Positions 12,588-54,143 of a DNA stretch of 64,000 bases are shown here, piece by piece (the first letter of the stretch is position 1; each line of letters begins with the position of its first letter). The notes beneath the pieces were generated by a model, which ran no database searches, had not been told where the DNA came from, and worked only from the letters and a program-made list of their open reading frames with translations. Source of the stretch: an uncultured Methanosarcinales archaeon (GTDB taxonomy: Archaea > Nanobdellota > Nanobdellia > Woesearchaeales > DSVV01); contig CAZKVI010000003.1 of assembly GCA_964556185.1 (NCBI GenBank), forward strand, positions 2,089 through 66,088, in the 5' to 3' direction. A program made the translations under genes and the position numbers.

Positions 12588-13892
12588 ATGGTAAAAAGAG
12601 CTGGAATGAAACAAAAGTTAGGAGTAATTAAGGAATTTGAAGACTTAATAGTTGAATATCCTATTATTGGTTCTGTTAATATGACTTCTTTACCAACTAA
12701 AACAGTTCAGCAAATGAGAGCTCAATTAAGAAAAAAAGGCGTTGTCCTTAAAATGAGCAAAAGAAGATTAATTAATATTGCAATAAATAATTGTAAAGAG
12801 AAAAAGAAAGGTATTGAAAATCTTCTACCTGAACTTAAAGGTATGCCAGCATTAATATTCACAAAAGAAAATCCTTTTGCATTATACAAGTTTTTATCTA
12901 AGAATAAATCATCTGCTCCTGCAAAAGCAGGCCAAATAGCTCCAAATGAAATTGTAGTTAAAGCAGGTCCAACAGGTTTTTCACCAGGACCAATTATTGG
13001 AGAACTAGGTGCTGTAGGAATTAAAGCAGGTGTTGATGGTGGAAAGATTGCAATCAAAGCAGATAGTGTTGTAGCTAAAGAAGGAGATGAAATTACAGAA
13101 CAATTAGCAGCAATATTAACAAGACTTGGTATTGAACCAATGGAAATTGGTTTAAACATGGTTGCAGTATTTGAAGAAGGTAATGTTTATGATAGTAAAA
13201 TCTTAGCAATTGATGAAGATGAATACATGAATAACATAACAACAGCAGCAACTTGGGCTTTCAACTTAGCAGTTGAAGCAGCAATACCAACACCAGATAC
13301 AACAGAATTACTATTACAAAAATGTTTCAAAGATTCCAAAGCAGTTGCAATGGAAGGAAATATTATGGCAGATGCTGTTGCAGAAGAATTACTTGCAAAA
13401 GCTGAAAGAGAAATGTTAGCTCTAAAAGCAGAAGCAAATATTAGTGATGCACCAGTAGTTGACAAAGTCAACGAAGAAGCGCAAGCTTCTGTAAAAGAAG
13501 AAGTTAAAGAAGAACCAAAAGCTGAAGAAAAACCAGCTGAAGAAGCAAAAGAAACAGAAACAAAAGAAGTTTCCGAACTTTCCGAGGGAAAGCAAGAAGC
13601 TGATAAAGCTTCTGTGGGAAACGAAGAAGTCGCAGAGACTTCTGAAGAAAAACCAGCAGAAACTACAGAAACTAAAGAAGGACCTGAAGCAGAAGGAGCT
13701 GATGAGGCACCTAAAGCAGAAGAAAAACCAGCTGAACCTGCACCAGCAGAGGAAGCAAAAGCTGAAGAGAAAGCTGATGAGGCTAAACCTGAAGCTAAAG
13801 AAGAAGCTGCACCAGAAGAACCAGCTAAAGAAGAACCTAAAGCTGAAGAAGCTCCTGCAAAAGCAGAAGATAAACCAGCTGATGAATCATAA
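12588..13892 (+). CDS. rplP0: ribosomal stalk protein P0 (uL10) with roughly 130-aa EKPA-rich C-terminal extension
   Basis: uL10 core domain, then [17 protein letters not shown] repeats. Ends ...KPADES without the conserved stalk peptide (GxGALF-type) seen in P1. Confidence 0.85.
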
Positions 13893-27926: not shown

Positions 27927-28235
27927 ATGCAAAAAGCAAGAATAAAGATAGCAAGTACAGACATAGACAAGATTAATAATACTTGTAGGTATATTTCTGA
28001 TATAGCTGATAAAACTGGTGTTGATATGCGTGGTCCTATTCCTTTACCAACTAAAAAATTAAAATTAACTACTCGTAAAACTCCTTGCGGAGACGGAAAA
28101 GCTTCCTGGGAAAGATACGAAATGCGAATTCATAAAAGATTCATTGATCTCGGCTTAGATGAAAGAGCTTTAAGATTGGTTATGAGGGTACCAATACCTG
28201 AAGGCTTGAACATAGAAATTGAAATGATTGATTAA
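27927..28235 (+). CDS. rps10: 30S ribosomal protein S10 (uS10)
   Basis: KARIKIASTDIDKINNTCRYI... Conserved EF1A-S10 gene order. Confidence 0.9.
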   Translation: MQKARIKIASTDIDKINNTCRYISDIADKTGVDMRGPIPLPTKKLKLTTRKTPCGDGKASWERYEMRIHKRFIDLGLDERALRLVMRVPIPEGLNIEIEMID

Positions 28236-28297
28236 GTTTGTTCTTGATTAACTCTTAGAATTGAGGCCGAAAGGCTCGAAGTCGAAGACTTCGCCCG

Positions 28298-28336
28298 CCT
28301 GAAGGCTTGAACATTGAGATTGAAATGATAGACTGA
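28298..28336 (+). repeat. degenerate 39-bp direct repeat of the S10 gene 3' end (about 34/39 identical to 28197-28235)
   Basis: cctgaaggcttgaacatTgaGattgaaatgatAgaCtga versus the gene end cctgaaggcttgaacatagaaattgaaatgattgattaa. The 62-bp insert between the copies holds a GAA-triloop hairpin. Confidence 0.7.
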
Positions 28337-28390
28337 TTCTACCCAAAAGCTTTTATTTGATACTTGATTTCTCTCTATTTAGGGTGCAAA

Positions 28391-28828
28391 ATGGCTAAAG
28401 TTAAGAGTAATGCAATTGGAAAACTTGAAGATGGTACTGAAGATAATAGAGCATATAATGCATTGGTTCGTCAATATGGTGTTGCATTTAAAGAATTATA
28501 TGATAATTTTCCAAGAGAACCAAAACCAAGATTAGGTCTTTATATGATGAGTATTAAAAGACCTGAAGGAGTCTTACGTCTTACACCAGGGGTTGTTGGT
28601 AGTTCATCAGATGGGATCCAGAAAAGAGTTCAAGCACATCTAGGAAAATGCTTAGATCAAATTGGATTAGATGATTTATGTATGGACGTTTTTACAGTTT
28701 CTTGTAATAGTACGAGCAGTGTTTGTGAAATAACTCCTTACACACTTGAAGCTAGAGCTTATTTAAAACATTATGGACAACAAATACTTGTTCCAGAAAT
28801 GCGAAGATTAAGATCTCAATCAAAATAA
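28391..28828 (+). CDS. hypothetical protein
   Basis: ORF with internal ATG start (MAKVKSN). No recognised domain. Confidence 0.3.
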   Translation: MAKVKSNAIGKLEDGTEDNRAYNALVRQYGVAFKELYDNFPREPKPRLGLYMMSIKRPEGVLRLTPGVVGSSSDGIQKRVQAHLGKCLDQIGLDDLCMDVFTVSCNSTSSVCEITPYTLEARAYLKHYGQQILVPEMRRLRSQSK

Positions 28829-29236: not shown

Positions 29237-29356
29237 CGGGCCCACGGGGATTCGAACCCCGGGCCTATGGCTGTCTGTGCGTAAGCAAAGACCCAGTGGA
29301 TCTTTGATCCTAACGCGTAAGAGGCCACCGCTCTAACCAGGCTGAGCTATGAGCCC
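29237..29356 (-). tRNA. tRNA-Lys(CUU) with about 45-nt intron after position 37
   Basis: Manual fold: GGGCTCA/TGGGCCC acceptor, GCTC/GAGC D-stem, GTGGC/GCCAT anticodon stem, loop CU-CUU-A, T-arm CGGGG-TTCGAAT-CCCCG, discriminator G. Confidence 0.7.
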
Positions 29357-29485: not shown

Positions 29486-30367
29486 TTATCCTTGATAAAA
29501 ACCAATTAACTGTCTTTGTCTCTTAACATGTCTTAATTTTCTTAAGGCTTTTACTTCGATTTGTCTTATTCTTTCTCTTGTTAAATCAAATACTTGACCA
29601 ATCTCTTCAAGAGAATAATGACGAGGATGATCAATTCCATATCTCATTTTCATAACTTTTTCTTCTCTGGGTGTTAATTCAGCAAGTACACTTCTAACAG
29701 CCTTTGCTAAATCAGAATCCCCTACATTTTCATCAGGTCTTCGAACACTAGCTCCTTCTATAAAATCACCTATGGTTGCATCTGATTCATCACCAACTTT
29801 TTGCTCTAATGATAATGGTTCTCTTGCAAGCCTATAAATATCTTCAATTTTTTCAACTGGTTCACCTAACCAATCTGCAATTTCTTCAGAAGTTGGTTCT
29901 CTACCAAGATCAGTAACAAGTTTTCGAGCCGTTCTTCTAACTTTAGTAACCATTTCTAATTTATAAATTGGAATTCTTATTGTTCTTACTGTAGCTTCTA
30001 TTCCTCTAATAACACTTTGTCTAATCCACCAAGAAGCATATGTAGAAAATTTATATCCTCTTCTATATTCAAATTTTTCAACAGCTCTTATTAAACCTAA
30101 ATTACCTTCTTGAATTAAATCACCAAGTGGCAAGCCTCTATATTGGTATTGTCTTGCAATACTAACAACTAGTCTTAAATTGCCTTTTATTAAATCTTCT
30201 TTAGCTGTAGCTGCTTCATAAGGAGTGCCTTCTTCCATTGTTGTAGCTAATCTAACTTCATCATCTCTAGATAATAATGCTACAGCCCCCATTTGATTCA
30301 TATACTTCCTTAGAACTCTAGGATCATCTCTATATCTTGGCCCACCTTGATAATGACTAACACCCAT
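29486..30367 (-). CDS. bacterial-type RNA polymerase sigma-70 family factor (regions 1.2, 2, 3, 4)
   Basis: Region 1.2 [28 protein letters not shown]. Region 2 [58 protein letters not shown]. Region 4 [15 protein letters not shown]...[29 protein letters not shown]. Confidence 0.8.
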
Positions 30368-45766: not shown

Positions 45767-46648
45767 ATGAACAAATCAATTATAATCTCATTAATACTTA
45801 TACTTGTCTTAATCACATCAGTTTATGCATTAGAAGGTTCTAGAACTGAATTAGAAAAAGCATCTGCTCAAGAATATGGCTATGCAAGAGGATATGACCA
45901 AGCTTCTGATGGAATGTCAAAAGATCCAAATTGGGTTAGCAAATATACAAATAGATTAAGTAGTATTGCAAGACACTATGTAATTGATGTAACTGAAGAA
46001 GAAATTGAAGCATATCAATCAGCAAAAGGTACATATTTGTTAGCATATAAACAAGGCTATGATGATTATAAACAAGGAGAACCTGAACCACAAACTAAAA
46101 AAGTTGAAAAAGTTGAAAGATATGGAACAGTTACAGAAGAAATAACAGAATCACCTTTAACAAATATAGATTGGGATAAATCTACAGAAGAACTTGGTTA
46201 TGAATTCGGTGTTTATGATGCACAACAAGGCAATGCAAAATCTCCTTATACAATTTTGAATAAACTTAGTTGGGATACTTCTTTGAAAATAAAAGCACGA
46301 AGAATAGTTAATGAAAAAGTAGACTTTATCAAAGCATACAAAAAAGGATATGAAGCATCTGATTCTGTTGAAATAGTAAGACAACAAGACAAAGGCATGG
46401 CTGAAAAAGGAGAATCTGAAATAATTGGCTGGGCACTAGGTTATTCTCATGCAATTAATGGCCAAGAACAAGACTCAGGAGTTATTTATGATTACACATA
46501 CCTTAGCAGGCTTCCTAAGGATCTATTTGACAAAAGTGTACATCATATGTTACCACGTAGATTAAAAATCAGTCCTAATGAAAGACATTGGTTTGAACAA
46601 GGCTATAACAATGGCTATGCAGATGGTTTGCTGAAGTTAGAAGAATGA
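45767..46648 (+). CDS. secreted acidic protein with six GY-containing repeats
   Basis: Signal peptide; repeats YGYARGYDQASDG / AYKQGYDDYKQGE / LGYEFGVYDAQQGN / AYKKGYEASDS / LGYSHAINGQEQD / FEQGYNNGYADG. Confidence 0.5.
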   Translation: MNKSIIISLILILVLITSVYALEGSRTELEKASAQEYGYARGYDQASDGMSKDPNWVSKYTNRLSSIARHYVIDVTEEEIEAYQSAKGTYLLAYKQGYDDYKQGEPEPQTKKVEKVERYGTVTEEITESPLTNIDWDKSTEELGYEFGVYDAQQGNAKSPYTILNKLSWDTSLKIKARRIVNEKVDFIKAYKKGYEASDSVEIVRQQDKGMAEKGESEIIGWALGYSHAINGQEQDSGVIYDYTYLSRLPKDLFDKSVHHMLPRRLKISPNERHWFEQGYNNGYADGLLKLEE

Positions 46649-46755
46649 TGGTAATTATATAACATTAAATATTGTTTATCACAACATCTGATGTTAAACT
46701 AAAGTTCTCTAAAATTAACAGATTGTTAATAACAAAGAACAAGTGAAAAACTTCT

Positions 46756-47571
46756 CTACTTAAAGTCATGTTCTTTGTATTTCTTAAGAAGTCCTAAAAT
46801 TTCCTTATCTTTAATATCTTTCAATTTTAAAATAATATTATTTATATCATCGCCTTCTTCACTATTGTCTTCTTTTCTAAAACTTATTGAAATTTTATCA
46901 TCTTGCCAAATAAAATATCTCAATATCTCAATATCTTTATCATTAGAGTTGTCCTCTAGCCATTTTCCAAGCTTTTTCTTTAATTTAAATAAATCTTCAT
47001 CATATTTTGGTGTTTTAGTATAAAGTGCTCTAGCGAAACCCTCTAATCCAATAATACTATTAAGTTTTTTCTTTGTTTTTCTTGAATAATATTCATAGTC
47101 TGTTCTACTAATTGGTTTTTCCTCAATAATCCTTTTAATTATTTGTTTTTCTTTTTTTGTGAAAATTTGAGATAGCCACATCTGTAGATTTCTCTCTGCA
47201 TAGATTTTTTGCTTGTCAATTATTAATTCAGATTTTTTTAATCTAGCTAATTGCAATTCAAACTCTTGTTTAAATTCATCATAATCAAGATTTCCTTTAT
47301 TACTAAACTCAGGCAATTGTTTATCAATATTATTCTCTTCAAATATTATTCTTGTAAAAGCTAATATTTGGCTAAAAATCTTTTTTTTAGGTGTTTTTTG
47401 ATATAATTCTTCAATATCTAAGTCATACTTATAAATTAGAAATGGAATAGCTTTCAAATATCTTATATTCTCAGTCTTCAAAATAGATAAAATTAGTTTT
47501 TCTTTGCTTTTATCTGCACCAAGCATCCTGTAGCCTGCATCAGTAAGCTTTTTCTCTATTGCTGTTGCCAT
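46756..47571 (-). CDS. hypothetical protein, second gene of the cassette operon
   Basis: Overlaps the upstream nucleotidyltransferase gene by 16 nt. No recognised domain. Confidence 0.4.
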   Translation of the reverse strand: MATAIEKKLTDAGYRMLGADKSKEKLILSILKTENIRYLKAIPFLIYKYDLDIEELYQKTPKKKIFSQILAFTRIIFEENNIDKQLPEFSNKGNLDYDEFKQEFELQLARLKKSELIIDKQKIYAERNLQMWLSQIFTKKEKQIIKRIIEEKPISRTDYEYYSRKTKKKLNSIIGLEGFARALYTKTPKYDEDLFKLKKKLGKWLEDNSNDKDIEILRYFIWQDDKISISFRKEDNSEEGDDINNIILKLKDIKDKEILGLLKKYKEHDFK

Positions 47572-48176
47572 TTTTTAACCTCATTTATTATTTCTTTATT
47601 TTCCATATTCCATTCTTTAAATTTTATTTCAATTAGATCTAATAATTTTTGTTTATAATTTGCAACAATAGATGTTTGCATAGTTTCTTTATATCTACTA
47701 ACAAGTTCTTTAAGATCTATTTTCTCTTTTTCAAAAATTCTTTTTACATCATCAAAGTCTCTAGAATCACCTCTTGCTAATTTACTTATTATAACATCAT
47801 ACAAAGATAATGTATAAAGTTCAATCTTACCAAATGATTGAATATGTTTGGATTTTTCTAAACAATCTGGAAGTAAATCAGTTCCTAAAATATATGAACT
47901 ATGAAAGACATCAAAAGCCAAACCTTCTTGTGTAATCCAGCGAATATGTCCTGTTTTCTCAAATCCAATCTGTTCAAATATCTTACAGATATATTTGTAT
48001 TCTTTATCTGAGTGGATATTAATATCTATGTCTAATGTTGATTGTTTGATATTAAGTATTGTTAATGCTGTTCCACCTAATGCATACATCTTAGTTTTCT
48101 TTTCAATAAATTTTGATAGGGATTCAAGTAATTCAAAGAGTTCATTAGCATTAATTTCTTTTTTATTGTGAGGCAT
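47556..48176 (-). CDS. AbiEii/DUF1814-like nucleotidyltransferase (putative toxin/abortive-infection component)
   Basis: YALGGTALTILNIKQSTLDIDINI matches the GGTAL...S.DIDf nucleotidyltransferase motif. Confidence 0.45.
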   Translation of the reverse strand: MPHNKKEINANELFELLESLSKFIEKKTKMYALGGTALTILNIKQSTLDIDINIHSDKEYKYICKIFEQIGFEKTGHIRWITQEGLAFDVFHSSYILGTDLLPDCLEKSKHIQSFGKIELYTLSLYDVIISKLARGDSRDFDDVKRIFEKEKIDLKELVSRYKETMQTSIVANYKQKLLDLIEIKFKEWNMENKEIINEVKKWQQQ

Positions 48177-48544
48177 ATTACTAATAAAACAGCTTTAGTA
48201 TATAAATCTTCCTATTTTTGTACGTATATATACAATTATTGTATAAAAAACTCACAAAGAAGGCTATAACAATGACTATGCAGATGGATTGTTGAAGTTG
48301 GAAGAATGAATATAAACAAAGAAAACTAGCAAATAATGTAGTGGTTAACTTTTTAATAAATTACTATTTAATATGTAAAATGTAGTGGTTATATATTTCT
48401 CTAAATTAGGTGTCTACATTTATGGTGTTTTGTAGTCACCCATATATTGATTATTTATTTCTAACTAGTTCAATTAATTTCATTCTTACTTTGGTTCAAA
48501 TTAAGACCAAAAAAGTTCTTCTTAAGATTTGAGTATGGATTGTA

Positions 48545-48600
48545 AGAAAAAAACGCCACGACCCGGACTTTCAAACCACAGGTTTGAACCTTTTGGTTTT
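48545..48600 (-). repeat. degenerate partial duplicate of the tRNA-Ser 3' end with an internal hairpin insertion
   Basis: tatcccggttcaaa...tccgggtcgtggcg versus the tRNA 3' end tatcccggttcaaatccgggccacagcg. No valid cloverleaf. Confidence 0.5.
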
Positions 48601-48649
48601 TGAACCGGGATACAATATGAGCTTTGCTCATATGTACAAAAAATTAAAA

Positions 48650-48763
48650 CGCTGTGGCCCGGATTTGAACCGGGATATCCCGGAGGAAACAAGCTAAACA
48701 GTGCATGCCTTGAAAATACATACATTTCCAGGCTTGCGCAGTACCAGGTTGTGCCACCACAGC
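48650..48763 (-). tRNA. tRNA-Ser(GGA) with about 30-nt anticodon-loop intron and long variable arm
   Basis: Acceptor GCTGTGG/CCACAGC, anticodon stem CAAGC/GCTTG, loop CU-GGA-A, T-arm CCCGG-TTCAAAT-CCGGG, discriminator G. Confidence 0.55.
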
Positions 48764-48772
48764 AAAAAAAGG

Positions 48773-48897
48773 TGGCAGTGGCGGGATCTGAACCCGCGGC
48801 TTCTAGATCGCCCAGATATAAAGTTTAATCATCGGCATGAGCCTCATCACTCAAATCTTATGAGTCTAGCACTCTAACCAGGCTGAGTTACACTGCC
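48773..48897 (-). tRNA. tRNA-Met/Ile2(CAU), elongator type, with 50-nt intron
   Basis: Acceptor GGCAGTG/CACTGCC, D-stem ACTC/GAGT, anticodon stem CTAGA/TCTAG, loop CU-CAU-AA, T-arm GCGGG-TTCAGAT-CCCGC. Intron contains GUGAUGA. Confidence 0.7.
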
Positions 48898-50122: not shown

Positions 50123-50269
50123 CGAAGTTAGAAGTTCAACAAGAACTTCTCATTATTACCCATATACTGGATAATAACCTTCATATCAATATTAATGCCA
50201 TAGGTTATATATAAACCTTTCGGTTATGTAGTTACTTTAGAGGAGTTAATATATAAAAGAAAGTATATA

Positions 50270-50341
50270 TGGACTCACCGAGATTTGAACTCGGAGTCTC
50301 CCCGAAGCCAACGGGGTGCGATACCATTTCGCCATAAGCCC
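50270..50341 (-). tRNA. tRNA-Ala(GGC), no intron
   Basis: GGGCTTA acceptor with the G3:U70 Ala identity pair; D-stem GCGA/TCGC; anticodon stem CCCCG/CGGGG; loop UU-GGC-UU; T-arm CCGAG-TTCAAAT-CTCGG. Confidence 0.8.
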
Positions 50342-50508
50342 ATACAATGCTAGCTACATATATGCTTATATATAATTTACGCTAATTTCTCACTATATGT
50401 AGTACTTGTACACATTACATAACTTTCTAATAAAGCAATCCTAATATACAAATCATAACCTTTTTATATCACCTTAGTCATACTTTGACTTAACACGGGG
50501 GTGTTTAA

Positions 50509-51340: not shown

Positions 51341-51583
51341 TTACTGTAAATCTTTATGATATAAAGCAATAATATAAATGACTCTTTTTTCAATCCTATA
51401 TGATAATCTAAATGGAGGAATATACAACTCTCTTGTCCCTTTTCTATTATACATCATAGGTTTGCCAATCTCAGGATTATCTTTTATTTTAGAAATTTGT
51501 TTGATGATTTTCTGTTTAAGGGCATTATTCTTAATCTTACTAAATTCCTTCTTAAATAAAGAATCAAAAATAACTTCTACCAC
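51341..51583 (-). CDS. relE: RelE/ParE-family toxin
   Basis: 80 aa; NRKGTRELYIPPFRLSYRIEKRVIYIIALYH. 7-nt overlap with the upstream antitoxin gene. Confidence 0.7.
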   Translation of the reverse strand: MVEVIFDSLFKKEFSKIKNNALKQKIIKQISKIKDNPEIGKPMMYNRKGTRELYIPPFRLSYRIEKRVIYIIALYHKDLQ

Positions 51584-51843
51584 TTTTTCATTTCCTCAAG
51601 AAAATCATCAAATTCCATTTTAATGCCTTTACCTTCTTCAATTCTCTTCCAAGCTTGTTCTGTTCTTTTTGCAAATTCTAGATCTTCTTTTAGATTTTTC
51701 TCTAATTCTGTAGCTTTCTTCATAATTAATTGATGGTCATTCTTAATAATGATTAATTTATCTCCTTCATGAAGATCTCCTCTCATTTCATTAGGAATTA
51801 CAACTTGGCCTTTTGAACTCATTCGTGTTATAGCAACATCCAT
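51577..51843 (-). CDS. AbrB/MazE/SpoVT-type antitoxin
   Basis: MSSKGQVVIPNEMRGDLHEGDKLII. Confidence 0.7.
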   Translation of the reverse strand: MDVAITRMSSKGQVVIPNEMRGDLHEGDKLIIIKNDHQLIMKKATELEKNLKEDLEFAKRTEQAWKRIEEGKGIKMEFDDFLEEMKKW

Positions 51844-51906
51844 ATTATCACCAAGTAAGATTAATCTTACTTAGTATATAAAGTTTACGGTTTTACACGT
51901 AAACTA

Positions 51907-51923
51907 AGAAGTCGAAGACTTCT
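51907..51923 (-). terminator. GNA-triloop hairpin AGAAGTC-GAA-GACTTCT followed on the minus strand by a U-rich tract; probable terminator of the 51961..52386 gene
   Basis: Perfect 7-bp stem. The same hairpin occurs at 28277..28293, and a variant at 53170..53188. Confidence 0.45.
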
Positions 51924-53135: not shown

Positions 53136-54143
53136 GTGGGTAATCAATTAAACTTTCCGAAGGAAAGCAAGAAGTCGATGAGACTTCTGTGGAAGAGGAT
53201 AATATTAGTTTTATCTATATTTCTTGCTACATTGCAGACTACTCTAGCTTATTCTTGGAGTGAGTTTGTAAGCACAACAATGAAAATATACAATGCTCAA
53301 GCAGATTTCTTTTCTAATATATTTAATGCAGCACCTCCTTTATTCCATGCACTCTTTTATTGGCTTTTTATCTATATTGCAATCTTCAGAAAATATGTAA
53401 AACCAAAATTAGGAGCAGGTTTTGCATTGGGAATGCCTGTTTTATTAGCTCTTGGGGTTGTTACAGCTGAACGCTTAACAGGAGTAAGCTTTTTTTGGAT
53501 GTTTTTAATCTTTTTTGGAATATATAAAACATTGTTTGTAATTCTTGCATTCAGAAAAGCTAATTTTCCAGTAATTTTAATTGGATCATTAGCTTTTATT
53601 ATTGCATTTGTTCTTTTATTATTTTACCAACCAGCATGGTTTATTGATTTTAGACAAGATCATCCACTTATTATGTTATTAGGATATATTTTGTTTGCAA
53701 TCTTTTCAATAATTACTTTATTTGGTGCTTTTAGATACATAATTGGTGGAGGTTATAGTAATATTCAATGGCCACCTCCATTTAGACAAACATATAAAGA
53801 TTTATATGGTGATCCAGGATCCTCCTCCTCTTCAGGTCAATCAACACCAAATATGTCAAGATTACATAGAAAAGCTGAAAAGTTTCTTGCAAATTCTGCA
53901 GAATACGCTGCTGCAGAACAAAAGTATGCACAAATGAATGCATCACAAAGAGCAAAAGTAGAAAAAGATATGCAAGATAGTCGAATTTCTTTGATAGCAA
54001 GGGGAACTGCAATAAGAAATCATAAAAAATATGAAAGAGATGTTCCACAAGATGTTAAACATAGATTTGAAACAGCATTTAATGCTATTATGACTCAAGG
54101 TGGCTCACATGGTGGAGCAGGTGGCGGAGGCCCTGGCCATTAA
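53136..54143 (+). CDS. membrane protein with Gly/His-rich C-terminus; probable start at the ATG at 53178
   Basis: MRLLWKRIILVLSIFLA... TM helices; tail GGSHGGAGGGGPGH. A hairpin overlaps the start codon. Confidence 0.4.
   Translation: MGNQLNFPKESKKSMRLLWKRIILVLSIFLATLQTTLAYSWSEFVSTTMKIYNAQADFFSNIFNAAPPLFHALFYWLFIYIAIFRKYVKPKLGAGFALGMPVLLALGVVTAERLTGVSFFWMFLIFFGIYKTLFVILAFRKANFPVILIGSLAFIIAFVLLLFYQPAWFIDFRQDHPLIMLLGYILFAIFSIITLFGAFRYIIGGGYSNIQWPPPFRQTYKDLYGDPGSSSSSGQSTPNMSRLHRKAEKFLANSAEYAAAEQKYAQMNASQRAKVEKDMQDSRISLIARGTAIRNHKKYERDVPQDVKHRFETAFNAIMTQGGSHGGAGGGGPGH

Follow-up and report, generated by a model that had tools for sequence, protein, structure and literature searches.

A second S10 gene end beyond a hairpin-containing insert in a Woesearchaeales genome: a possible scar of 3'-end displacement by recombination

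Why should the gene for ribosomal protein S10 be followed, a short way past its stop codon, by a second copy of its own end? The question is raised by a 64,000-nucleotide stretch of contig CAZKVI010000003.1 (assembly GCA_964556185.1; hereafter the window), from an uncultured archaeon placed by GTDB in the Woesearchaeales. The region is archaeal, with ~31% G+C in the window, and the genomes nearest to it are Woesearchaeota/Nanoarchaeota metagenome-assembled genomes throughout. A preliminary description of the locus had reported that the last 39 nt of the S10 gene recur 62 bp downstream with five substitutions, and that the insert between the two ends holds the perfect hairpin CGAAGTC-GAA-GACTTCG. 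These coordinates and counts proved exact, and the hairpin was confirmed at 28277-28293 (Table 1). Below, W denotes the window's own lineage and locus, and L-numbers denote the loci and contigs compared with it. The explanation that we favour, and hold with roughly even confidence, is that this feature was left as a scar when the 3' end of S10 was displaced by recombination with DNA of related archaea.

The two ends, copy 1 in the gene and the orphan copy 2 downstream, are identical at 34 of 39 positions and start 101 nt apart. All five substitutions (ATA>ATT, GAA>GAG, ATT>ATA, GAT>GAC and TAA>TGA) are synonymous or replace one stop codon by another, and both copies translate as PEGLNIEIEMID*. 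Copy 2 has no start codon and no open reading frame (ORF) leads into it. By chance, 64 kb would be expected to contain <1e-5 such 34/39 matches within 200 nt (binomial, p ~0.3 per base). The W arrangement was assembled identically and independently in at least four samples of the lineage and is therefore real DNA; homologous arrangements have been assembled in many other studies. The contigs of three independent assemblies (L004, L005 and L006) stop at exactly 28278, and L171 starts at 28282. These breaks fall within the 5' arm of the hairpin and suggest a population variant or an alternative join at 28279-28281. Within the insert, the AT-rich spacer reads GTTTGTTCTTGATTAACTCTTAGAAT in W and GTTTCGGATTAATGACTTCTTTAGAAT in L185, with a comparable stretch in L017 (by-eye sequence comparison). 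The predicted minimum free energy for 28236-28320 is -28.3 kcal/mol. Beyond copy 2, the counterpart of 28337-28390 is TTCTACCCAAAGGCTTATATTTAATACTTGATTTCTCTCTATTTAGGGTGCAAAATG in L177, L182 and L184.

Close relatives were found both with and without the second end. A protein search recovered S10 sequences 95-99% identical to that of the window. Contigs with a 95% identical S10 protein occur in three states: S10 is followed directly by a 138-aa gene, by a 148-aa gene, or by a W-homologous insert and a second gene end and then the 148-aa gene. The homologous insert occurs in L172, L175 and L179, and its hairpin reads CGAAGTC-AAA-GACTTCG. L172, which has the insert, and L177, which has none, show 0 mismatches over S10 and ~2 kb downstream, and L177 differs from L172 by exactly 95 nt, the length of the insert and one repeat. 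A recombination event joining the two L172 copies would give exactly the L177 sequence. The three nearest relatives of W (L182-L184; 99% identical in amino acids, 94-95% in nucleotides) all lack the insert, again by exactly one repeat plus insert. The flank after copy 2 in W is the flank after S10 in L182 and L184; the downstream flank of L183 is different. The unit of insert and repeat is gained or lost on the time-scale of strains, and in this respect the miniature element proposed in the preliminary description stands as an indel unit. Conservation as a regulatory element in distant relatives had been named there as grounds for refutation. In distant relatives the structure is patchy, and because close relatives exist with and without the unit, a conserved regulatory element is ruled out.

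The differences between the two ends bear the mark of coding sequence. Sixteen copy pairs from different lineages comprise 161 codons and 78 nucleotide differences, with 70 codon differences synonymous (12 of them stop-to-stop) and 2 nonsynonymous. When half of the hits were simulated as unconstrained on one copy, ~29 nonsynonymous codons were expected, with a minimum of 22 (3000 simulations). The copies have therefore diverged as working genes in different genomes. In L172 they differ at 4 sites despite a background otherwise identical to the empty-site contig L177. The end ATGATAGACTGA+TTCT, which is the copy 2 terminus in W and copy 1 in L172, exactly matches the native S10 end and flank in L122, a distant lineage with no insert. 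Copy 2 always has the lineage-specific C-terminal residues of copy 1 (ID, IE, IDV, IDS, IGT, MV or VEG), indicating that the DNA came from fairly close relatives. Near-identical copies occur in L102, L098 and the first pair of L016. Taken together, the codon pattern argues that the two copies are xenologs and not an in-place duplication. The preliminary description had envisaged an element that rebuilds the terminal codons: synonymous-only ends and replacement codons from another genome agree with such rebuilding, whilst the autonomous targeting proposed with it stays conjectural.

The structure recurs across the Woesearchaeota. We gathered 160 S10 loci from species-representative genomes and metagenomes and scanned 3' of each S10 stop for a re-encoded C-terminus, requiring an exact amino-acid match. 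Ends of 4-14 codons with a stop are re-encoded within 24-650 nt in L016, L017, L026, L027, L033, L036, L040, L045, L058, L098, L102, L103 and L111, and W and L172 also carry a second S10 end downstream. The structure is present in ~1/6 of loci with at least 70% S10 identity. Control scans of the reverse strand and upstream sequence gave no re-encoded end of >3 residues. In a scan at the nucleotide level, 14 loci scored above every reverse-strand and shuffled control, a set nearly the same as that found by amino-acid match. Three gene-end copies are present in L016, L033 and L040; L016 is a true tandem array, and L033 is a tandem array with two different inserts at one site. Decayed relics of S10-end copies were seen in L138, L051 and L116. 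The inserts fall into several mutually unrelated families, with no common core shared among them. Hairpin-module inserts measure 24-150 nt, the gene-end repeat 15-45 nt across lineages, and the left boundary lies 4-14 codons before the stop among families. TTCT lies 3' of both stop codons in W and L172 only. At L111 the 608-nt insert contains a two-gene cassette, in which the second ORF encodes a ParE-family toxin (toxin-antitoxin).

One insert family comprises W, L172, L036, L045, L026 and L102. Across its members the apex hairpin has changed almost wholly in sequence and kept its pairing, with compensatory double changes at 5-6 of 7 pairs and essentially no mismatches. This covariation argues that the hairpin is kept by selection on structure; most plausibly it would serve as a 3' stem-loop in the S10 mRNA. 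All members of the family have the same junction with copy 2: the hairpin foot, 3-4 nt, then CC(T/A)GAAGG. Predicted folds of all insert families place the first bases of copy 2 in a longer imperfect stem, on its 3' side. Alifold gives one compensatory pair for the outer helix formed with copy 2, and the duplex test of the outer arm (insert/copy 2) was marginal, with p<0.1 in 5/15 cases against shuffles. Sense-strand folds were more stable than antisense folds in 14 of 15 cases, with one tie, which fits an RNA role but also base composition. Hairpins within 120 nt of the S10 stop average -13.7 kcal/mol at loci with the duplication and -7.5 kcal/mol at loci with none (shuffles -10.6 and -7.1, respectively), and strong hairpins near the stop are essentially limited to loci with the duplication.

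Copies of the hairpin also occur elsewhere in the window. There are two occurrences of GAAGTC-N3-GACTTC and four of GAAGTC-N3-9-GACTTC, where 100 shuffles gave 0, and the hairpin belongs to a small dispersed family in the W genome. The other window copies have no gene-end duplication. The 51.9-kb copy shows no strain polymorphism and is present in 3/3 other contigs recovered. Among the related S10 loci screened, the motif occurs only at the S10 site of the W and L172 lineages.

What distinguishes the 3' end of S10 as a site? Between W and its nearest relative L182, the S10 gene differs at 3 positions of nt 1-251 and at 11 of nt 252-309. This skew marks a recombination breakpoint within the last 58 nt of S10. 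Positions specific to W (against all eight relatives) are 261, 279, 280, 282, 285 and 288, clustered in the 3' stretch, and the variants at 279-285 (GGC TTG AAC) are common to both W copies. The EF-1alpha and S10 genes form a conserved block that anchors recombination. Downstream of S10, divergence is 10-30%, and gene content differs even among contigs with identical S10 protein; in L173-type contigs, for example, S10 runs directly to the 138-aa gene and the 145-aa gene is missing. The sequence comparison thus places the meeting point of the conserved block and a hypervariable region in the last ~50 nt of S10.

Further downstream, L172, L175 and L177 have a free-standing LAGLIDADG_3 ORF (245 aa) from ~2945, and L173 and L176 a radical-SAM gene from ~2516, where the window has a tRNA and a sigma factor. 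The region after S10 is therefore a hot spot of gene content within one S10-identical group. The sigma factor is a bacterial-type sigma-70 family gene (Pfam Sigma70 r1_2, r2, r3, r4) at 29486-30367 (-), ~1.2 kb from S10. It lies at the same place in the 95%-S10 relative L180 and is therefore a stable resident, not contamination.

Table 1. Features of the S10 locus and related structures in the window
Feature	Coordinates	Strand	Basis or remarks
EF-1alpha gene, 430 aa	26570..27862	+	ORF and Pfam GTP_EFTU domains; near-identical among close relatives
Ribosomal protein S10 gene, complete, 102 aa	27927..28235	+	Pfam Ribosomal_S10 (PF00338); directly 3' of EF-1alpha; ends in copy 1
Copy 1, CCTGAAGGCTTGAACATAGAAATTGAAATGATTGATTAA	28197..28235	+	Last 12 codons of S10 plus TAA, serving as the actual gene end
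Insert, 62 nt	28236..28297	+	Lies between copy 1 and copy 2
AT-rich spacer, 27 nt	28236..28262	+	Looks like the native S10 3' flank of other Woesearchaeota
Predicted long imperfect stem-loop	28253..28319	+	First 22 nt of copy 2 form the 3' arm; includes G.U pairs (S10 sense strand)
GC-rich double-hairpin module	28263..28297	+	GGCC-GAAA-GGCT, then CGAAGTC-GAA-GACTTCG, then CCCG
Perfect apex hairpin CGAAGTC-GAA-GACTTCG	28277-28293	+	7-bp stem, 3-nt loop
Copy 2 (orphan S10 end), CCTGAAGGCTTGAACATTGAGATTGAAATGATAGACTGA	28298..28336	+	12 codons plus TGA
Native flank and promoter region of next gene	28337..28390	+	Homologous to the sequence directly after the S10 stop in insert-less relatives
145-aa gene, function unknown	28391..28828	+	First gene of the variable region; missing in some same-species relatives
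Two-gene cassette at 3' end of a 293-aa gene	46596..48328	+	72-nt gene-end repeats 46596-46667 and 48257-48328
Second double hairpin, identical 15-nt core GAAGTCGAAGACTTC (recurs at 51908)	51882..51923	+	Intergenic; no gene-end duplication
Related double hairpin, CTTTCC-GAA-GGAAAG and AGAAGTC-GATGA-GACTTCT	53151..53199	+	82% identical to 13576-13624 in the L10/P0 gene

How could recombination leave such a structure? Under 3'-end displacement, DNA of related archaea would recombine at the border of the EF-1alpha-S10 block and the hypervariable downstream region, and one complete gene end and one truncated xenologous end would be retained in tandem. Copy 1 is the normal S10 end, followed by 27 nt of S10-type flank, the double hairpin and a presumably untranslated orphan, copy 2, which runs straight into the flank that adjoins S10 in insert-less relatives. 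Homologous or illegitimate recombination may have made the joins. As the incoming piece would bring or leave full terminal codons, the gene would never be broken. S10 coding homology lies on both sides of the unit, which should therefore be deletable, expandable and transferable by homologous recombination: it could be lost precisely by recombination between the two copies (L177), expanded by unequal exchange (L016) and moved between genomes by an ordinary double crossover. The codon-clean state of copy 2 would mean either that it is young or that it has been overwritten repeatedly by incoming S10 ends. In such a refresh process, incoming ends would pair with copy 2 during downstream swaps and keep its right-hand part gene-like.

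Several observations weigh against this explanation. The six loci of the W-type insert family share one junction though they are only 77-83% identical in S10 protein, and the family must therefore be old or horizontally spread. A codon-clean copy 2 in an old family would require the refresh process, a step needed because one insert family with a single junction spans such distant lineages. The novel junction always lies at the hairpin foot and strong hairpins occur essentially only with the duplication, a hint of some mechanism specific to hairpins, which plain recombination would not predict. The end types are swapped around the insert between W and L172, and a single crossover in the repeat cannot yield the swap. 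The codon patterns of L045, L036 and L026 are suggestive as to which copy is resident and which incoming, but offer too few sites for a decision. Detection by exact C-terminal amino-acid matching also biases the sample to intact copies, though the nucleotide scan finds nearly the same set. Recombination at the border of gene and island accounts for the data no less well than targeted integration does.

Targeted integration would imply a non-autonomous miniature integrative element flanked by attachment (att) sites. Its recombinase, encoded elsewhere and possibly recognising the hairpin, would integrate small circles carrying an S10 end, regenerate S10 and leave attL/attR-like repeats, and the toxin-antitoxin cassettes would ride the same system. 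The target is indeed the 3' end of a conserved gene, the empty site equals one repeat, and the L033 array holds two different inserts at one site. In L172, copy 1 has a native left and a foreign right part, and copy 2 has a foreign first codon and a native right part, as from a crossover within a carried end. The hairpin abuts the junction in every family, accompanies duplications when strong and is dispersed in the W genome, and TTCT follows both stop codons in W and L172. We nevertheless judge such an element unlikely. No integrase was found in the unit, among the 17 window ORFs scanned against Pfam or between the repeats at any locus examined. The repeat length varies, the insert families have no common core, the other window hairpins lack a gene-end duplication, no free or viral form with an S10 end was found, and a double-stranded circle of 95-101 bp would be physically awkward. 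Since the hairpin stands at the junction, the ends are swapped and contigs break on either side of 28279-28281, a hairpin-recognising recombinase acting in trans is kept alive as a rival. The same results tell against the part of the preliminary description in which a self-defined element targets gene 3' ends: no recombinase was found in the unit or its neighbourhood, the repeat has no fixed length, and the hairpins elsewhere in the window lack a duplicated gene end. Only two protein-gene-end duplications, at S10 and at 46.6-48.3 kb, occur in the 64-kb window.

The covariation of the hairpin could instead reflect an RNA device in the 3' untranslated region, with copy 2 itself under selection. 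The part of the insert upstream of the apex hairpin would pair either with the start of copy 1, which is translated, or with the start of copy 2, which is identical to it; the outcome would be a switch that responds to translation, or a stem that protects the EF-1alpha-S10 transcript. The compensatory changes in the apex hairpin, the one compensatory pair of the outer helix, the more stable sense folds and the freedom of copy 2 from nonsynonymous change are what such a device would show. Pairing, however, would constrain about the first 22 nt and not the codon pattern through the stop codon, and third-position-only variation in copy 2 is a signature of coding, not of RNA structure. The unit is absent from the closest relatives and so dispensable, decayed copies exist, outer-arm pairing is only marginally above shuffles, and the sense asymmetry may reflect G+T content. 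We regard the device as improbable. In-place duplication of the target, either by a transposase- or casposase-like enzyme or as a local tandem duplication, followed by drift, would account for direct repeats around a small structured insert, for the near-identical copies in L102, L098 and the first L016 pair, and for the true tandem array of L016. It is contradicted for W and L172: the L172 copies differ at 4 sites in a background identical to L177, differences are overwhelmingly synonymous (70 to 2), the foreign end type is another lineage's native end, repeat length is not fixed, and the sequence after copy 1 is unlike that after copy 2. In-place duplication is thus rejected as very improbable. 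An assembly artefact, in which two strain alleles of the S10 end were joined in tandem, has next to no probability. The copies do resemble two alleles and several contigs break at the hairpin, but the junction of insert and copy 2 must exist in real reads, the same arrangement came from different assemblers (at least four samples for W, at least three for the L172 type), and homologous arrangements appear in many unrelated studies.

The locus was also compared with defined classes of element. With Rfam 15, only four tRNAs pass gathering in the window, and at permissive thresholds the best hit in 28100-28450 had E >=2.4, far below gathering. No recombinase was present among the scanned ORFs and the 62-nt insert holds no ORF, so that the integrase expected within a tyrosine-recombinase element was not seen. 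The cargo cassettes carry only ParE and antitoxin, or DUF6036 and an unknown protein, with no recombinase. IMG/VR gave 0 matches to a degenerate 30-nt S10-end pattern and to the W hairpin module; the bare 17-mer hairpin had 20 matches there, judged uninformative with no expected count. Transposons, miniature inverted-repeat transposable elements and casposons were rejected on the variable repeat length of 15-45 nt and the 4 differences between the L172 copies in a clonal background. An archaeal bulge-helix-bulge intron was likewise rejected: the 4-bp helix (AGGC/GCCU) lies between an internal loop of 3x3 and one of 1x3, with no bulges, the layout is not kept in L036, L045 and L026, and the gene is complete without splicing. 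A diversity-generating retroelement does not fit, as the differences (A>T, A>G, T>A, T>C, A>G) are not adenine-only and the repeat is just 39 nt encoding the same peptide; no reverse transcriptase was found among the scanned neighbours. Archaeal integrons exist, but inspection of 28236-28320 revealed no RYYYAAC...GTTRRRY core sites at the stem base as in an integron attC, and no IntI was found. A kink-turn, box C/D, a small ORF ending in copy 2, readthrough and ribosome bypass were rejected by eye and by folding. In-frame stop codons stand just before copy 2 in L045 and just after copy 1 in W, and bypass or splicing was set aside because the resulting protein would be the same. Simple tandem duplication was rejected, as the sequences after copy 1 and copy 2 differ. 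A 12-13-nt direct repeat around the 51.9-kb hairpin was rejected as a target duplication, TTTAGTATATAAA being a recurrent promoter-like motif in the genome.

The features that did match belong to three classes. As in 3'-end displacement, there is a complete gene with an orphan 3' fragment, the ends are xenologous, a conserved region borders a variable one, and arrays form (triple copies in L016, L033 and L040). As in att-flanked elements of tyrosine recombinases, direct repeats of the target gene's 3' end are present and the empty site in relatives equals one repeat. As in dispersed-hairpin families, several structured GC-rich palindromes occur in one genome.

The closest parallel is the C-terminal displacement with orphan 3' regions described at rhs, contact-dependent inhibition (CDI) and type VI secretion system (T6SS) effector loci (Kirchberger et al. 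2017, PMC5361080). That displacement is attributed to homologous and homology-facilitated illegitimate recombination (PMC5361080; citing Jackson et al. 2009). There, as at S10, xenologous DNA gives a new 3' end to a gene with a conserved 5' part, the old end is pushed downstream, a short conserved direct repeat is kept, and arrays build with no integrase. At the rhs, CDI and T6SS loci, however, the tips are different toxins and diversity is favoured, whereas the S10 ends encode the same 12 residues of an essential protein, the inserts are 24-150-nt hairpin modules or toxin-antitoxin cassettes, and the host is a DPANN archaeon.

Integrative and conjugative elements (ICEs), integrative and mobilisable elements (IMEs) and cis-mobilisable elements (CIMEs) integrate at the 3' ends of conserved genes, such as streptococcal fda, rpsI, rplL and rpmG and archaeal tRNA genes. 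They share with the S10 structure the targeting of a conserved, often ribosomal-protein, gene 3' end, the carriage of replacement terminal codons, attL/attR-like direct repeats, tandem accretion and integrase-less derivatives. The S10 locus differs in that no nearby integrase was found, its inserts are smaller by up to 100x than the CIMEs known, the families differ in repeat length and left boundary, and no core common to them was identified. Fungal mitochondria have mobile-ORF insertions with duplicated gene C-termini (Allomyces atp6; Glomus mobile ORFs) as well as GC-rich double-hairpin elements and GC clusters. The likeness lies in an AT-rich genome with dispersed GC-rich double hairpins, polymorphism between close relatives, and a hybrid gene that has a foreign C-terminal piece and leaves the resident C-terminus downstream. 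Those are organellar genomes and this is an archaeal one, and homing-endonuclease ORFs are found there, with none in the S10 insert; the LAGLIDADG ORF lies ~1.1 kb away, in the L172 lineage only. In Helicobacter, as Nobusato and Kobayashi reportedly described, restriction-modification genes are inserted with long target duplication. Both cases involve small selfish cassettes (here toxin-antitoxin), tens of bp of duplicated target and no transposase, but the Helicobacter target is duplicated in place and the S10 copies are xenologous. Repetitive extragenic palindromes (REPs) and bacterial interspersed mosaic elements resemble the hairpins in being short, GC-rich, dispersed, placed just after stops and variable in sequence with structure kept, and a role in mRNA 3'-end stability is plausible for both. 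REPs have no duplicate of the upstream gene end; at S10, no REP-associated tyrosine transposase (RAYT/TnpA) was identified and the window holds 4-5 copies in 64 kb. The S10 structure is thus of a known kind, 3'-end displacement or gene-end-restoring insertion, and is notable for its essential ribosomal gene, its frequency in DPANN archaea and a site shared with toxin-antitoxin cassettes.

What follows from such a scar? A streamlined genome can admit foreign DNA just where a gene for an essential ribosomal protein ends. In uncultivated DPANN archaea the presence or absence of the scar is easy to score as a marker of recombination, and it points to the S10 3' end as the place where a hypervariable region begins. 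The route is apparently shared by toxin-antitoxin cassettes. Should the hairpin module have a mobilising enzyme of its own, it would represent a new type of miniature mobile element in archaea. On the practical side, gene callers can be misled by orphan ends, and several assemblies have contigs that break off at the hairpin. A more general proposal, which we think unlikely, is that DPANN archaea harbour integrase-less, homology-armed mini-cassettes (25-150-nt hairpin modules and small toxin-antitoxin cassettes) that would carry an essential gene's last codons as landing pad and insurance. They would be moved by host recombination or by an undiscovered recombinase cutting at the hairpin foot, with the S10 3' end as preferred dock across Woesearchaeota.

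The other protein-gene-end duplication in the window has the same architecture with cargo. The preliminary description had drawn a parallel with the cassette at 46.6-48.3 kb, and the parallel is real: its 72-nt repeats are 81% identical and each copy ends at a stop codon, with 3 synonymous and 2 nonsynonymous codon differences. Between them are two minus-strand ORFs, one of 271 aa and unknown function, the other a 206-aa DUF6036 nucleotidyltransferase, toxin-antitoxin-like. This DUF6036 cassette and the ParE toxin-antitoxin cassette at the S10 gene of L111 are the examples with cargo. No strain polymorphism was seen at 46.6-48.3 kb, and the same arrangement is present in 4/4 other contigs recovered.

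Three tRNA genes of the window (29237-29356, 48650-48763 and 48773-48897, all minus strand; Rfam tRNA model) are 114-125 nt long and contain long inserts, presumably introns. ARAGORN misses all three and reports only a tRNA-Ala at 50269-50342. After the 3' end of the tRNA at 48650-48763, the stretch 48553-48649 (minus) has a T-run and the hairpin ATATGAGC-AAA-GCTCATAT. It is followed by a 14-nt exact T-arm repeat, TATCCCGGTTCAAA, at 48599-48612, which runs, past an inserted hairpin, into what remains of a degenerate tRNA 3' end whose acceptor strand is different, TCCGGGTCGTGGCG. The structure resembles the S10 orphan end and would be its tRNA-linked counterpart.

Some smaller observations concern the dispersed hairpins and the S10 flanks. 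The GAAGTCGAAGACTTC hairpin copy at 51882-51923 adjoins a pair of genes for a ParE toxin and a MazE/AbrB-type antitoxin at 51341-51843 (-). It is bracketed by two (C/T)TTAGTATATAAA promoter-like motifs, and the motif also occurs at 48193-48206. The L10/P0 gene (12588-13892, +) is unusually long, at 434 aa with an acidic low-complexity tail, and the tail carries in-frame double-hairpin sequences at 13576-13654. In the related intergenic/5' copy at 53151-53199 (49 nt), the loop of the second hairpin holds the start codon of a signal-peptide-like ORF. In L002 (ENA scaffold_9774, 1643-2936), of the same lineage as the window, EF-1alpha is called as two ORFs of 192 and 230 aa, which suggests a frameshift or a sequencing error in the contig. 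In the insert-less contigs L177 (1810-1818), L184 (448-456) and L173 (1810-1818), the S10 stop is followed by ATTCATTAA (or ACTAATTAA or ATACATTAA). This 9-nt near-copy of the last two S10 codons and stop (ATTGATTAA) also stands after copy 2 in L172, and is possibly an older, shorter relic of the same process.

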